A stretch of DNA of 64,000 bases from Actinomycetota bacterium (GTDB lineage Bacteria; Actinomycetota; UBA4738; HRBIN12). Below are positions 38,032-43,181 of this stretch, one piece after another. The DNA lies in the NCBI GenBank assembly GCA_005884925.1, contig VAYU01000001.1:20237-84236 (forward strand), in the 5' to 3' direction. The position numbers and the translations under genes were made by a program. The notes beneath the pieces were generated by a model. That model saw only the letters and a list, made by a program, of their open reading frames with translations, searched no databases and was not told the DNA's origin. Every line of letters starts with the position of its first letter. The first letter of the stretch is position 1.

Positions 38032-39084
38032 TCAGGCTCCCGCGGGAGCCTCCGGGACGGCCGTCGCCTGCGTCTCCGACTTGATGTCGATCCGCCATCC
38101 GGTGAGGCGGGCCGCGAGGCGAGCGTTCTGACCCTCTTTCCCGATCGCGAGCGAGAGCTGGTAGTCGGGCACGATCACCTGCGCCGTCTGCGTGTCCGGG
38201 TCCACCCGGACCTCGCGGACCTTCGCCGGTTGGAGCGCGTTCGCCACGAACTCGCTCGGGTTCTCCGACCAGGGGACCACATCGATCTTCTCGCCCCGAA
38301 GCTCCGTCACGACGTTGCGTACCCTCGAGCCCTTGGGCCCCACGCACGCACCCACCGGGTCGACCGCGGGTTCGTTGGACCACACCGCGATCTTCGACCG
38401 ATGACCCGGTTCGCGGGCCACCGCCTTGATCTCGACGACCCCGTCCGCGATCTCGGGCACCTCCAGCTCGAACAGCTTCTTCAGCAGCCCGGGATGGGTG
38501 CGGCTGACGACGATCTGTGGTCCTTTGGCTCCCCGGCGAACCTCGGTGATATAGGCCTTGAGTCGCTCGCCGCTGCGGTACGGCTCCGACGGCACCTGCT
38601 CCGCCTGCGGGACGAGCGCCTCCACCTTCCCCAGATCCAGCAACGTGTAGCGTCGCTCGGACTGCTGGACGATCCCCGTGACGATGTCGCCTTCCCGCCC
38701 GGCGAACTCCTCGTACGTCATCTCACGCTCGGCGTCACGCAGCTTCTGGAAGATCACCTGCTTCGCCGTCTGGGCACCGATCCGGCCCTTGAAATCGTCG
38801 GTGACCGTGACCTCTTCCTCGGAGAGGACCTTCATCACGAGGGTCTCACCGTCTTCGGCTTCGACCTCCTCGAGCTGCTGCTGGAACATCCGCATCTCAC
38901 CCGTCTCGGGGTCGATCTCCGCGCGGAACCCGACGAAGTCGTCGTCCGCGTCCGGATGTTCCGTCTTCCACGCCGACTTGTACGCAGCGGCCATCGCCTC
39001 CTCCAGACCCTGGAGGATCGTGTCGAAGGCGATGCCCTTCTCGCGCTCCAACTCGCGGAGCGCCGCGATCATCTCGGCGTTCAA
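38032..39084 (-). CDS. nusA: Transcription termination/antitermination factor NusA
   Basis: ORF 38032..39282 (-). The likely start is the TTG at 39084 (LNAEMIAALRELEREKG, compare Mtb MNIDMAALHAIE), with an AAGGGA ribosome-binding site. It overlaps the rimP stop. S1 and two KH domains are present. Confidence 0.9.
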   Translation of the reverse strand: MNAEMIAALRELEREKGIAFDTILQGLEEAMAAAYKSAWKTEHPDADDDFVGFRAEIDPETGEMRMFQQQLEEVEAEDGETLVMKVLSEEEVTVTDDFKGRIGAQTAKQVIFQKLRDAEREMTYEEFAGREGDIVTGIVQQSERRYTLLDLGKVEALVPQAEQVPSEPYRSGERLKAYITEVRRGAKGPQIVVSRTHPGLLKKLFELEVPEIADGVVEIKAVAREPGHRSKIAVWSNEPAVDPVGACVGPKGSRVRNVVTELRGEKIDVVPWSENPSEFVANALQPAKVREVRVDPDTQTAQVIVPDYQLSLAIGKEGQNARLAARLTGWRIDIKSETQATAVPEAPAGA

Positions 39085-39548
39085 GCGTGCGTTCCCTTCA
39101 GCTCTGCGGCCCAGTCCACGACCGTGCGCGCGGATGCGACCTGGCGGTGCCCGATGCGTCGTACGACCCCATCGACCTCGACGTCGATCGCCCGGTCGTC
39201 GGCAGCTACCAGGGTTCCGACGTGCACCGATGAGCCTCCGACGGGCTCGACGGTCCTGACCTCCACCTGCCGTCCGACGCATCGCGCGAACTGCGCCGGT
39301 GCCCGAAGCGGCCGTTCCAGGCCGGGTGAGCTGACCTCGAGCCGGTAGGACCCCTCACCGAAATCCTCGAGGTCCAGCCGCCGCGCGAGCTTCTCCGAGA
39401 TCGTGGCGATCGTCTCCAGATCGACGCCGCCCTCACGGTCGACGGTGATCCGCAGGATGCGATGAGCGCGAGGGCCGTGATACGACACCTCGACCAGCTC
39501 CAGCCCAGCTCCTTCCACGACGGGGCGCACCAGCGCTTCCGCGTCCAC
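39081..39548 (-). CDS. rimP: Ribosome maturation factor RimP
   Basis: 155 aa, immediately upstream of nusA. Confidence 0.85.
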   Translation of the reverse strand: MDAEALVRPVVEGAGLELVEVSYHGPRAHRILRITVDREGGVDLETIATISEKLARRLDLEDFGEGSYRLEVSSPGLERPLRAPAQFARCVGRQVEVRTVEPVGGSSVHVGTLVAADDRAIDVEVDGVVRRIGHRQVASARTVVDWAAELKGTHA

Positions 39549-39572
39549 CCGACCATCCCCCTACAAACGAAA

Positions 39573-39590
39573 GGTGGGCGCGCGCCCACC
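39573..39590. repeat. Perfect 18-bp palindrome GGTGGGCGCGCGCCCACC in the rimP/trpE divergent intergenic region
   Basis: Seen directly in the sequence; a candidate operator or bidirectional hairpin. Confidence 0.5.
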
Positions 39591-39704
39591 TCCGGCTCGT
39601 GCAACGGCTCCTCGACGGAACGAGTATAGCCGCCACCTCGTCCGATGGATCGGACCTGCGCGGTCGCGTTGACGCCCGTACCGTGCCCGTGCGACCATCG
39701 CGCG

Positions 39705-39727
39705 CCCCGGACCGATGCGGTCCGGGG
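39705..39727 (+). promoter_or_regulatory. Strong hairpin (10-bp stem CCCCGGACCG/CGGTCCGGGG, 3-nt loop) in the trpE leader, 14 nt upstream of the GGAGGAG ribosome-binding site
   Basis: Seen directly in the sequence; a possible attenuator, terminator or RNA regulatory element for trpE. Confidence 0.45.
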
Positions 39728-39752
39728 TTCCGCATCTTCCGGAGGAGCATCG

Positions 39753-41243
39753 TTGGACCACCCGCTGGTGGTACGGCCCGATCGGGACGTCTTCGACCGG
39801 CTGGCGGCGGACTGGCCCCTCGTGCCGGTGTGGGCGGAACTCCTCGCGGATGTCGCCACGCCCGTCTCGGTGTTCCCCGCCGTTGCCGGGGACGGGCCGG
39901 GGATCTTGCTCGAGTCGGTCGAACGATCCGAGCGGTGGGGTCGGTACTCCTTCGTCGCAGGCGATCCCGCCGCGATCATCGTGGTCGACGACGGCGGGCT
40001 CCATCTGCGCGACATCGCGCGGGAGCTCCCCACCGGGGAACCCTCGCGCCGCCTGACGCCGCGTGAGGCCCTCCGCGCCGCGGTGCACCGGCTGCGGGCG
40101 CCACGGGTCGACGGCCTGCCCCCCATCACTGGCGGGCTGATGGGGTACGCGTCGTACGAGGCCGCAACCCTGCTCGACGGGCATCCGGTGCCGCACCCCG
40201 ACGAGGCGCCGTGCCCACCGATCGGGTTCCTCCTGATCGATCGGGCAGCCGTCTTCGACCATTGGCGGCAACGGCTCGTGCTCGTCGCACACGTCCCCGC
40301 CGGCCGCTACGACGACGGCATCCGGGCGCTCGAGGAGCTGGCCGATAAGCTCGCCGGCGCTTCAGGCCTCTCGCTGATGAGCGCCGGGAGCGTCGGCGAG
40401 GCCGACGGCGAGGCAAACATGGACGACGACCGGTACCGCCGGATCGTGTCGGCCTTCAAGGAGCACATCCTCGCGGGAGACATCTACCAGGCGGTCCCGT
40501 CCCGGCGGGTCGCCTTCGACGCGCCCGACGGTGGGCTGCCGATCTACCGACGTCTGCGCGTCTCCAACCCGGCGCCCTACATGTTCTACCTTCGCATGCT
40601 CGGGATGGAGCTCGCAGGGTCCTCGCCCGAGCCGCTCGTTCGCGTCGAGGGGCGGCGCGTCACGGCGCGCCCGATCGCGGGAACCCGGCCCCGAGGCCGG
40701 TCCGACGCCAGCGACCGCCTCCTCGAGCACGAGCTCCTCGCCGACCCCAAGGAGCGCGCCGAGCACGCGATGCTGGTCGACCTCGCGCGCAACGACCTCG
40801 GGCGCGTCTGCGAGCCGGGCACCGTCCGCCCGACCGAGCTCATGCAGGTGGAGCGGTTCTCTCGCGTGATGCACATCGTCTCGACGGTGGAGGGGGACCT
40901 GCGCCACGACATGGAACCCTTCGACGCGCTCGCCGTCACGTTCCCGGCCGGGACCGTGACCGGTGCGCCGAAACGCCGGGCGATGGAGCTGATCGCCGAG
41001 CACGAACCCGACGCTCGCGGCGCCTACGCGGGCGCGGTCGGATACCTAACCTTCGCCGGAGACCTCGACTTCTGCATCACGATCAGGACCGTCGTCGTCA
41101 CGGACGGGATCGCGAGCGTCCAGACGGGTGCGGGTGTCGTGTCCGACTCCGATCCCGAGACCGAGCTCCTCGAAACGAAGGCGAAGGCATCGGCATTGAT
41201 CCCGGCCGTGGCCCCCGCCCCTTCAGGTGACGGCGGGACCTGA
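39753..41243 (+). CDS. trpE: Anthranilate synthase component I TrpE
   Basis: ORF 39645..41243. The likely start is the TTG at 39753 (LDHPLVVRPDRDVF...), 5 nt after GGAGGAG. The chorismate-binding domain is present (LARNDLGRV...GAYAGAVGY). Confidence 0.85.
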   Translation: MDHPLVVRPDRDVFDRLAADWPLVPVWAELLADVATPVSVFPAVAGDGPGILLESVERSERWGRYSFVAGDPAAIIVVDDGGLHLRDIARELPTGEPSRRLTPREALRAAVHRLRAPRVDGLPPITGGLMGYASYEAATLLDGHPVPHPDEAPCPPIGFLLIDRAAVFDHWRQRLVLVAHVPAGRYDDGIRALEELADKLAGASGLSLMSAGSVGEADGEANMDDDRYRRIVSAFKEHILAGDIYQAVPSRRVAFDAPDGGLPIYRRLRVSNPAPYMFYLRMLGMELAGSSPEPLVRVEGRRVTARPIAGTRPRGRSDASDRLLEHELLADPKERAEHAMLVDLARNDLGRVCEPGTVRPTELMQVERFSRVMHIVSTVEGDLRHDMEPFDALAVTFPAGTVTGAPKRRAMELIAEHEPDARGAYAGAVGYLTFAGDLDFCITIRTVVVTDGIASVQTGAGVVSDSDPETELLETKAKASALIPAVAPAPSGDGGT

Positions 41244-42527
41244 GGCAAGCGGGGCGACGCGGGCCGAGAAGATCATCTCGGACCCGCCGACGTACCGGAG
41301 GTACTCGATCGAAAGGCCGAGCGCCTCCAGGTCGCCCTGCAATCCGCGACGCGTGTACCGGTTGACGTGCTCCTTGACGTACCCGTTCGGGAACACCTTG
41401 CCGTAGAGCCATTCCAGGAACAACCATCGCTTCCGGCCGTAGTCGGGCGTTCCCAGGATCAATCGACCGCCGTGCGCGATCACGCGAACGAGCTCATCCA
41501 GATGGACCTGCTCCCTCGGGATGTGCTCGATCACCTCGGAGCAGATCACGGTCTCGAAGGCGCCGTCGGCGAACGGGAGGCGTGTCAGCGAGCCCTGGAC
41601 CAGGTGGCGGCCGGGCGCGCGGAGCCAACGGAGCTTGTGGATCCCCAGATCCATGCCGACCACGCCGGGCAGGGTCTGCACGATCCGGCTCGAACCGCAA
41701 CCGATGTCCAGGGTGGAGCGACTCGCCTCGGGTCCCATGAACGAGTGGACCACCTCGAACCGGCGGCGTTGCCAACTGCGCTGGAGCGGGATCCAGGAGT
41801 CGAAGGCGCGGTTGTCGTAATCCGCCGCGCGGACGGAGTTCCTGAGGCTCAGCAGTCGTCCGAGCGTCTCGAGATAGGCGAGCCCGAACTGCACCATGCG
41901 AACCCGGTTCCACGGCTCCGCGCCCCGGTACCAGAAGGGCACCTCGATCACCCGCCAGCCCTGGCATTGCGCTTTCACGATGATCTCGGGGAGGATGTCC
42001 AACCCGTGCGCCTCGAGCGGCTGGATATCGAGGAGCACGCGGCGACGGTAGAGGCGGAAGCCGCTCGATAGGTCGCGGAAGGGGATCGAGAGCCCGAAAC
42101 GGTAGACCCAGTTGAGCAACCGGCTCGCGGTCCGACGGCTGAAACCCATCTCGGCGACGGCGCCCCGGACATACCTCGACCCGATGACGACTTCGGCCTC
42201 GTCGCGATGCGCCCACATGATGGGCACGAAGTCGGCCGCGTACGCGAGATCCGCGTCCATCGTGATGATCAGATCACCTTGCGCCGCCTCGATGCCGGTC
42301 CGCAGGATCTCGCCGTACGCGGCTCCCTTGGACTCGACGAACACGGCCGATGCTCCTTCGACGATCCGGTGCAGCGACGGGTCGGCCGCGCAGACGAGGA
42401 TCTCGGAGCGAGGCTCGACGCTCCCGAGCGCCCGTTGCAACGCGGGAAGCAGGTGGGGCAGATCGTGGCGTTCGCCCCAGACGGGTACCACGATCGAGAG
42501 CACCGTCCTCTCGGCGTTCCGGATCAT
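41223..42527 (-). CDS. Bifunctional fusion: N-terminal GT2-family glycosyltransferase (dolichol-phosphate mannosyltransferase-like) plus C-terminal class I SAM-dependent methyltransferase
   Basis: ORF 41223..42863; start at MIRNAERTVLSIVVP (42527). GT2 DxD (ITMDADL) and the methyltransferase motif I (LDIGCGSS) with Methyltransf_11-like core. The portion upstream of 42527 is antisense to trpG and rejected. Confidence 0.7.
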   Translation of the reverse strand: MIRNAERTVLSIVVPVWGERHDLPHLLPALQRALGSVEPRSEILVCAADPSLHRIVEGASAVFVESKGAAYGEILRTGIEAAQGDLIITMDADLAYAADFVPIMWAHRDEAEVVIGSRYVRGAVAEMGFSRRTASRLLNWVYRFGLSIPFRDLSSGFRLYRRRVLLDIQPLEAHGLDILPEIIVKAQCQGWRVIEVPFWYRGAEPWNRVRMVQFGLAYLETLGRLLSLRNSVRAADYDNRAFDSWIPLQRSWQRRRFEVVHSFMGPEASRSTLDIGCGSSRIVQTLPGVVGMDLGIHKLRWLRAPGRHLVQGSLTRLPFADGAFETVICSEVIEHIPREQVHLDELVRVIAHGGRLILGTPDYGRKRWLFLEWLYGKVFPNGYVKEHVNRYTRRGLQGDLEALGLSIEYLRYVGGSEMIFSARVAPLASGPAVT

Positions 42528-42617
42528 CCGCCCGCATCCTCTCGCCGCATCCCGCCCGCTCCGTGGGCGCGGCGTCAAGGGTCCGGCCCGAGCAGGCCGC
42601 ATGATACCGTCCGCCGC

Positions 42618-43181
42618 ATGATCCTCGTGGTGGATCACTACGACAGCTTCACCTTCAACCTTGTCCAGCTGATCGAGAGCCTCGGCCGAGAGACCCGTGT
42701 CGTGAAGTCCGACGAGCGCTCGGCCGAGGAACTGCTCGCGATGCGCCCCGAAGCCGTGGTGCTCTCCCCGGGACCAGGACATCCGCGCGACGCCGGGGTC
42801 TTCACGGAGCTGCTGGCCGAGCTCCCCGCCGAGACACCGATCCTCGGGGTGTGCCTCGGCCACCAGGCGCTAGGGATCGGATCAGGAGGCACCGTGGACC
42901 GTACCGAGCCCGTCCACGGCAAGGCATCCCTCGTGTACCACGAGGGGCGAGGCATCCTCGCGGGCGTCCCGGTGCCCTTCGAAGCGGGTCGATACCACTC
43001 CCTGGTCGTCGAGCGATCGCTCCCCCCGGCGCTCGAGCTCACCGCGTGGACCGAGGAGGGGCTGGTCATGGGTGCCCAGCACCGCGACCTACCCCGCTAC
43101 GGCGTGCAGTTCCATCCCGAATCGATCCTCACGCCCGAGGGACCGCGGATCGTCGAGAATTTCCTCGGATCACGCCCCTGA
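42618..43181 (+). CDS. trpG: Glutamine amidotransferase: anthranilate synthase component II / aminodeoxychorismate synthase component II (TrpG/PabA)
   Basis: MILVVDHYDSFTFNLVQ...GVCLGHQ...HPES; 187 aa from the internal start of ORF 42207..43181. Confidence 0.8.
   Translation: MILVVDHYDSFTFNLVQLIESLGRETRVVKSDERSAEELLAMRPEAVVLSPGPGHPRDAGVFTELLAELPAETPILGVCLGHQALGIGSGGTVDRTEPVHGKASLVYHEGRGILAGVPVPFEAGRYHSLVVERSLPPALELTAWTEEGLVMGAQHRDLPRYGVQFHPESILTPEGPRIVENFLGSRP

Follow-up and report, generated by a model that had tools for sequence, protein, structure and literature searches.

Do the two conspicuous inverted repeats between a pair of divergent bacterial genes act on the same gene, or do they belong to different transcripts? 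The question is raised by the spacer between rimP and trpE in a contig of an uncultured Actinomycetota bacterium (GenBank GCA_005884925.1, contig VAYU01000001.1), of which a stretch of 64,000 nt, here called the window, was examined. The spacer consists of 204 nt between the GTG start codon of rimP (39548, minus strand) and the TTG start codon of trpE (39753, plus strand). A first-pass annotation had located in it an 18-bp perfect palindrome, GGTGGGCGCGCGCCCACC (39573-39590), and a strong hairpin, CCCCGGACCG-ATG-CGGTCCGGGG (39705-39727); these coordinates are right. It had regarded both as parts of a trpE leader of unknown function.

Both structures are real, and each is part of a different transcript. 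The spacer carries two promoters that face away from each other, each with a 5′ leader of its own, and the two leaders are unrelated. Very probably, the palindrome is the rimP-leader, an RNA element formed on the minus strand, and the hairpin is the terminator left over from a Trp attenuator that has been beheaded, namely has lost its sensing part. Both elements belong to known kinds, and the spacer holds no new trpE operator, riboregulator or control system. In the 64-kb window, GTGGGC-N3-7-GCCCAC and the pattern of the trpE hairpin each match once (vs 0.05 expected in both cases). Beyond this uniqueness, the decisive evidence for both motifs is their conservation: the first occurs in all 49 relatives that hold rimP, and the second in most of 80 relatives.

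The Trp attenuator of related bacteria

Relatives of the locus were collected by a scan with the TrpE protein, keeping one genome per species, which gave 80 loci (labelled by L and a number), all from metagenome-assembled genomes of uncultured Actinomycetota and with TrpE 68-94% identical to that of the window. Upstream of the trpE hairpin, 67 of the 80 relatives have a short open reading frame (ORF) with W-x-W or WWW (pattern W.?W). This leader ORF was delimited in 60 relatives, where it has 13-27 codons, usually 22, with 2-4 Trp codons; a typical leader peptide is MTTRQAWWWREGSWSPAPSRA. Its ATG or GTG comes 6-10 nt after the -10 hexamer of a trpE promoter motif, TTGACG-N17/18-[GC]A[CGA][CA]AT, which is found in 70 of 81 sequences. 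The leader ORF is leaderless or nearly so, starting at or within ~3 nt of the predicted transcription start. On its 3′ side follow CCACGAG, a hairpin GAGCCCCGGACC-loop-GGTCCGGGGCTC and a short U-containing tail.

Pair counts were made on an alignment of 43 trpE leaders (A4). Pairing reaches 95% in the terminator helix, where both sides have changed in 17 cells, and 91% in a local hairpin within the leader ORF. The antiterminator, formed by GGGCTCGTGG inside the ORF with CCACGAGCCC, is 75% paired vs at most 48% for slid controls, and five of its pairs show compensatory changes, e.g., CTCGCGG/CCGCGAG and CTTGCGG/CCGCAAG. These counts replaced alignment-free duplex energies for the antiterminator, which were uninformative in the GC-rich sequence (median z -1.3).

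Classical trp attenuators have been predicted in Corynebacterium and Streptomyces (Seliverstov et al., 2005; PMC1262725). Like these and E. coli trpL, the relatives possess a short ORF with 2-4 UGG codons, trpE directly downstream, and mutually exclusive antiterminator and terminator helices, of which the terminator is GC-rich. Unlike these, their leader ORF is leaderless and not driven by a Shine-Dalgarno sequence. Leaderless starts are a known habit of Actinobacteria, and mycobacteria have leaderless short-ORF attenuators with Cys-rich upstream ORFs (bioRxiv 10.1101/834739; Shell et al., 2015, PMC4633059). The leader ORFs of the relatives resemble the latter in that translation of a short ORF begins at the transcript 5′ end and its codons report the supply of one amino acid to the downstream biosynthetic gene. 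They differ in the use of Trp instead of Cys and in the clear intrinsic-terminator hairpin; this comparison covers the relatives, not the window. Trp leader peptides encoded ahead of trpE, with starts at the predicted 5′ end of the transcript or close to it, thus form a large family in these bacteria.

Loss of the sensing part in the window

The trpE side of the spacer in the window contains the following features.

39669-39698 (+): predicted trpE promoter, with -35 TTGACG (39669-39674), 18-nt spacer and -10 GACCAT (39693-39698); from the motif in 70/81 sequences and from alignment A2
39705-39727 (+): 5′-terminal hairpin of trpE, CCCCGGACCG-AUG-CGGUCCGGGG, homologue of the attenuator terminator (segments 3:4); from A2, pairing and conservation
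39728-39740 (+): weak U-containing tail UUCCGCAUCUUCC after the hairpin; from the sequence, with comparable tails in relatives that keep the ORF
39741-39755 (+): trpE Shine-Dalgarno sequence GGAGGAG (39741-39747) and TTG start (39753); from the sequence, the NCBIfam TrpE alignment and the ATG of relatives

The trpE transcription start is expected at 39704-39706, coinciding with the first base of the hairpin, and 13 nt separate the hairpin from GGAGGAG. Alignment A2 compares the full-length rimP-trpE spacer of the window with those of 12 relatives whose rimP and trpE are direct neighbours. It has a gap of ~85 nt in the window and L002-L004, between the conserved promoter and the hairpin. The rimP-leader is kept throughout this alignment, and the trpE promoter and hairpin are kept in all sequences except L005/L006. 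As read from this alignment, the ~85-nt deletion took the leader ORF, the antiterminator and the spacer, and it joins GACCATCGCGCG straight to CCCCGGACCG. The hairpin of the window is orthologous to the terminator helix of the relatives and lies, as in classical attenuators, between the former position of the ORF and trpE. The first-pass annotation was thus correct in proposing a terminator-type structure in the trpE 5′ untranslated region (UTR), and also in seeing no leader ORF with Trp codons in the window: the plus strand of the spacer holds two TGG triplets, and its sole closed W-containing ORF has one W and starts upstream of the trpE promoter. On the other hand, the function that it had called unknown can now be replaced by a remnant of classical attenuation, the Trp-codon leader ORF being present at the aligned position in the 67 relatives. 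Since both the ORF and the antiterminator have been deleted, ribosome stalling cannot report Trp in this genome; unlike classical attenuators, the leader of the window cannot attenuate.

An ORF of 113 aa (39715-40056, +) opens at the ATG of the hairpin loop, reads RWTTRWW, with TGGTGG at 39766-39771, and runs out of frame inside trpE. As a candidate Trp leader it was judged to be a chance ORF; a 2-nt indel in the loop breaks its frame in L002, and the loop of L001 has no ATG.

The first-pass annotation had also considered that the hairpin region might sequester the ribosome-binding site. The predicted 5′ end of the mRNA folds into the hairpin alone and leaves the Shine-Dalgarno sequence unpaired. 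Pairing of the Shine-Dalgarno sequence with 39637-39644, seen in a longer fold, was rejected, this segment lying upstream of the predicted transcription start.

The history of the leader can be proposed as follows. The ancestral trpE leader would have been transcribed from TTGACG-N18-GACCAT and would have had an ORF of ~22 codons, 2-4 of them for Trp, that was leaderless or nearly so. As antiterminator, GGGCUCGUGG would have paired with CCACGAGCCC, and GAGCCCCGGACC...GGUCCGGGGCUC would have been the terminator. In the lineage of the window, the ~85-nt deletion would have fused the promoter to the terminator hairpin, placing the latter at about +1 of the present trpE mRNA.

Maintenance and possible role of the orphan hairpin

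All 20 stem positions are invariant in the window and L001-L004, vs 43% of the four-fold degenerate sites of trpE (naive P ~4e-8). A metagenome scan with the 18-mer spanning the junction returned mostly unrelated GC-rich matches, leaving 16 usable loci after filtering for the TTGACG context. Altogether 15 distinct variants keep the stem, with ATG, ATACA, ATGCG, ATGCA or ACGCA as the loop, and the single stem substitution among them (L191, C to T) leaves a G-U pair in the plus-strand RNA. L098 and L150 are further variants, each with an indel of one base in the 5′ arm that may stem from sequencing error. We conclude that the trpE stem is maintained as an RNA structure under purifying selection. 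Among the metagenome contigs, L130 (Ga0066710_100009383) shows no difference from the window in the 104 nt compared, which run from the trpE -35 element to the first trpE codons, and probably derives from the same population as the source of the window.

The Trp leader ORF has been lost elsewhere too. In L075, a promoter-hairpin fusion lies ~85 nt upstream of trpE, and its junction (GACCATCGCGCGCGTGAGCCCCGGG) is unlike that of the window, which argues that loss of the Trp leader ORF recurred. In L025/L035, the promoter stands ~98 nt upstream of trpE, and behind it comes a leaderless ORF of 21 codons without Trp codons, which runs through the terminator hairpin and whose TGA overlaps the GTG start of trpE (GTGA); this arrangement suggests translation-coupled read-through instead of Trp sensing. 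Promoter-hairpin fusions with different junctions thus appear to have arisen independently in at least three lineages, namely the window clade, L025/L035 and L075. The hairpin itself is reduced to 4 bp, CCTC-TGG-GAGG, in L005/L006 and is absent from L071. These loci form a natural deletion series, from the full attenuator through promoter plus terminator only to no hairpin, which can be used to test a terminator hairpin without its sensor.

What, then, could the hairpin do now? Every conditional partner of the stem has been lost, and it must therefore act constitutively, if it acts. It would be a leaky terminator that lowers trpE output, a 5′ stem-loop that guards the mRNA from 5′-end-dependent decay, or both; a constitutive partial terminator and/or 5′-end stabiliser is the role that we infer. 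Leaky termination is possible because the tail of the hairpin resembles the tails of functional attenuators. As for protection, 5′-terminal stem-loops stabilise bacterial mRNAs, E. coli ompA being an example. The trpE hairpin is like stem-loops of the ompA type in that it begins directly at the predicted 5′ end of the mRNA or 1-2 nt from it; unlike them, it descends from a terminator and may still act as one. One could go further and suppose that attenuator terminators have recurrently been exapted into another device, either a 5′-end protective stem-loop or a throttle responsive to NusG/NusA, an idea that we regard as tentative and rather doubtful.

As for the control that remains for trpE, the TrpE translation carries LLESVERSERWGRYS, in which the motif LLES-X10-S is kept. 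This motif is a mark of Trp-feedback-sensitive anthranilate synthases, and the remaining control of trpE is likely to be at the enzyme level, by allosteric feedback inhibition of TrpE by Trp.

The palindrome as rimP-leader

On the minus strand, the spacer and its flank contain the following features.

39623-39631 (-): predicted -10 element of the rimP promoter, GGC-TATACT, with the start expected near 39616; from conservation in alignment A1
39570-39593 (-): rimP-leader hairpin GGAGGUGGGC-GCGC-GCCCACCUUU, whose core is the 18-mer at 39573-39590; from pairing in A1 and a covariance model
39563-39572 (-): U-rich tract TTTCGTTTGT after the hairpin, 7 T in 10, interrupted; from the sequence and relatives
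39556-39562 (-): rimP Shine-Dalgarno sequence AGGGGGA, 7 nt ahead of GTG; read from the sequence, with a G-rich block kept there in A1
39081-39548 (-): rimP coding sequence with GTG start at 39548; from NCBIfam RimP and tblastn alignment from residue 1 in relatives

By tblastn, rimP-nusA is located upstream of trpE and divergent from it in 49 of the 80 relatives. The gap between rimP and trpE in these 49 loci is either 184-332 nt or ~1.5-3.8 kb (full range 184 to 3762 nt), and this variation separates an element linked to rimP from one linked to trpE. The rimP hairpin, the U tract and the -10 element stand upstream of rimP in 49/49 loci, whatever the distance to trpE. The order on the rimP strand is always GC-TATACT, ~38 nt, CCGGAGGTGGGC-loop-GCCCACCTTTCGTTT, a G-rich Shine-Dalgarno sequence and the start codon. 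In the window the hairpin is found 14-45 nt ahead of the rimP GTG. The palindrome is accordingly not between the divergent promoters and not part of the trpE leader, as had first been thought: it lies within the rimP 5′ UTR, downstream of the rimP -10 hexamer (39623-39628) and ~80 nt short of the trpE -35 element, and is read on the other strand. In many relatives (L007-L009, L011, L014 and others), an insert of 1.5-3.8 kb separates rimP from the trpE leader; candidate ORFs in the 1.9-kb insert of L007, which extends from rimP to trpE, gave no Pfam match.

Alignment A1 consists of 41 distinct rimP leaders. In all of them TATACT is invariant, the preceding GC nearly so, and this element lies ~38 nt upstream of the hairpin. 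The 10-bp stem is paired in 99% of cells; one pair covaries, being GC in 30 sequences, AU in 10 and CG in 1, and the GTGGGC/GCCCAC core is unchanged. The loop varies in both sequence and length (4-6 nt), and a T-rich tail follows in every leader, on the rimP strand only. RNAalifold detected no conserved helix in these leaders besides the terminator helix. The repeat of the window is a perfect 18-mer because its loop, GCGC, is self-complementary; the loop GCGCGC of L004 makes a 20-mer palindrome in the same way.

The family was described by Naville and Gautheret (2010, Genome Biol 11:R97; PMC2965389) as a terminator upstream of rimP-nusA-infB, with a GGGc...gCCC stem followed by a stretch of U. 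From 31 rimP-leaders in the published lists, none of them actinobacterial, a covariance model (R1) was made, and the whole window was searched with filters off. The sole site found, at 39563-39598 on the minus strand, matches over the full length with 16.2 bits (E 0.15), and the plus-strand reading of the same palindrome is a weaker, partial match. Over the 49 related loci (422 kb), R1 finds exactly one site in each, just upstream of rimP, with 14-29.5 bits, and none elsewhere. The palindrome is the published rimP-leader, hence an already described element.

The hairpin of the window is like the published rimP-leaders in several respects: it is in the 5′ UTR of rimP-nusA-infB, on the coding strand and a short distance from the rimP start; its 5′ arm is G-rich and its 3′ arm C-rich, GUGGGC...GCCCAC fitting GGGc...gCCC, with a U-rich tract after it; and no antiterminator is visible in the family (PMC2965389) or, by RNAalifold, conserved in the window clade. 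Among the entries in the supplementary lists of that paper, those of Nostoc (GGAAGTGGGTTAATGCCCACTTTTTTT) and Anaeromyxobacter (GAAAGTGGGCCGCGGTCGCCCACTTTTTC) have a core nearly identical to that of the window, and Firmicute entries carry a TATAAT-like box 35-45 nt upstream, a distance shared by the -10 element here. Unlike the published leaders, that of the window belongs to an uncultured Actinomycetota clade, the phylum being represented among the 2010 entries by a Rubrobacter leader and one weak Rhodococcus region; its flanks are GC-rich, its U tract is interrupted (UUUCGUUUGU), and its self-complementary loop GCGC makes it a perfect 18-mer.

Transcription from GC-TATACT (39631-39623) would give a rimP leader of ~68 nt, in which GGAGGUGGGC-GCGC-GCCCACCUUU followed by UCGUUUGU would form a hairpin like an intrinsic terminator just ahead of the rimP ribosome-binding site. 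The rimP-leader would most likely abort a fraction of the transcripts before rimP-nusA-infB, and this fraction might be set by a trans-acting factor, most probably NusA in negative feedback. NusA was proposed as the regulator by Naville and Gautheret (PMC2965389), through whose references NusA feedback on the rimP-nusA-infB operon is documented in E. coli; for the ylxS (rimP) promoter region of B. subtilis, NusA-dependent negative feedback is mentioned in PMC6200986, citing Mondal 2016. The present findings extend the rimP-leader to an uncultured clade of soil Actinomycetota, with a core that is invariant though RimP is only 50-60% identical. This invariance sharpens the 16-year-old question of which factor reads the rimP-leader sequence.

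Alternative explanations

The first-pass annotation had suggested a protein operator for the palindrome, and it can indeed be asked whether the 18-bp palindrome is the DNA operator of a dimeric repressor that serves divergent rimP and trpE promoters. The repeat is perfect, and its half-sites GTGGGC/GCCCAC are invariant over the 41 leaders, beyond what pairing needs. However, the site is transcribed and does not lie between the promoters, the 4-6 nt spacing of its half-sites would alter the phasing of an operator, the compensatory change from GC to AU preserves pairing, and the T tract follows on the rimP strand only; the last three of these are the behaviour of an RNA hairpin. The palindrome also stays by rimP and does not travel with trpE, which can be up to 3.7 kb off, and the same motif is found upstream of rimP in Firmicutes, Cyanobacteria and Proteobacteria. 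A DNA operator is thus extremely improbable. If the hairpin is an RNA structure, it might still be non-terminating, that is, an element for RNA processing or stability, or a translational element next to the Shine-Dalgarno sequence, which begins 1 nt past the hairpin end. The interrupted U tract, the lack of a call by the terminator scan and the conservation of the stem sequence, which suggests specific recognition, would fit such a role. On the other side, a GC-rich stem with a short loop and an immediate T-rich tail in 41/41 leaders is the signature of an intrinsic terminator, the family is defined as premature terminators (PMC2965389), and NusA feedback on the operon is on record for E. coli and B. 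subtilis in the sources cited above (PMC2965389, PMC6200986). We consider a non-terminating hairpin unlikely, and a terminating rimP-leader is preferred.

For the trpE hairpin, the simplest alternative is that it is a functionless, neutral relic awaiting decay. The sensor parts of the attenuator are gone, the hairpin has shrunk in the next clade, L005/L006, and L071 has none. Against this stand the 20 invariant stem positions in five genomes vs 43% invariant four-fold sites, the 15 variants in which the stem persists and the loop differs in sequence and length, the only stem substitution being G-U compatible, and the promoter-hairpin fusions in at least three lineages with different junctions; a neutral relic therefore has a small chance of being right. 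Maintenance of the stem by selection after loss of the leader ORF could instead mean that it still responds to Trp through a sensor other than the ribosome, either a protein, a tRNA (T-box-like) or a riboswitch. Yet the predicted 5′ UTR has ~49 nt with nothing conserved besides hairpin, tail and Shine-Dalgarno sequence, and the deletion left the stem no alternative pairing partner. With Rfam covariance models, the window gave no match at the gathering threshold over its full length, and a search of 39400-39900 at E up to 10 gave only chance-level, irrelevant matches, with no T-box, riboswitch or curated cis-regulatory RNA among them. Such a sensor is very unlikely, and a beheaded attenuator terminator acting constitutively is retained as the explanation.

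Several points weigh against this combined interpretation of palindrome and hairpin. All transcription starts and RNA 3′ ends in this uncultured lineage are predicted, and so is termination itself. A simple consensus scan of 39000-40200 for promoters and terminators called nothing; the hairpins were missed because their extended stems run into the T tract. The U tracts of both hairpins are interrupted, with just two U next to the stem in the trpE tail, and termination efficiency may accordingly be low. The E-value of R1 in the window is marginal by itself. Four-fold degenerate sites are an imperfect neutral standard, and the whole spacer is ~90% identical in the five closest genomes, so the conservation is not unique to the stem. 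The invariant GTGGGC/GCCCAC core implies selection on sequence besides pairing, which leaves room for a sequence-specific binder of the RNA or, in principle, of the DNA. Finally, NusA dependence in this clade would be an extrapolation from E. coli and B. subtilis.

Flanking genes and other inverted repeats

The operon downstream of the rimP-leader has the order rimP-nusA-rnpM/ylxR-infB, with rimP first, as judged from NCBIfam matches to RimP, NusA, RnpM and IF-2. The longest nusA ORF (38032-39282, -) overlaps rimP by ~200 nt. The NusA profile begins at residue 70 of this ORF, so that translation of nusA probably starts well inside the ORF and not at its first start codon. The gene on the other side is the following.

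39753-41243 (+): trpE, encoding an anthranilate synthase component I-like protein of 496 aa; NCBIfam TrpE models, E ~1e-144

The TrpE-like protein scores under the NCBIfam TrpE equivalog cut-offs (482 vs 693; 480 vs 517.7). Its start at TTG 39753 agrees with the ATG that the four closest relatives, L001-L004, have in the corresponding alignment column and with the NCBIfam TrpE profile, whose position 6 aligns with residue 6. The in-frame upstream ATG at 39645 was rejected as the start: its frame is lost in L002, the ATG of relatives aligns with the TTG, and the TrpE profile begins from residue 6. trpE looks monocistronic, the next ORF (41223-42863, -) being convergent and overlapping the 3′ end of trpE.

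Two further inverted repeats were noted in these spacers. At 39640-39655, GTCCGAT-GG-ATCGGAC forms a 7+2+7 repeat between the two -10 elements and over the zone of the rimP -35 element. Its core CGATGGATCG is intact in L001 and L004, and L002 and L003 retain part of it. If the spacer holds a DNA operator, this repeat would be a better candidate than the 18-mer. The other is a perfect 20+6+20 palindrome in L004 (L004:3895-3940), centred on the trpE -35 hexamer TTGACG and 72-78% complementary in L002 and L003. As a general operator around the trpE -35 element it was rejected, because the repeat is perfect in L004 and absent at that register in the window and most loci.

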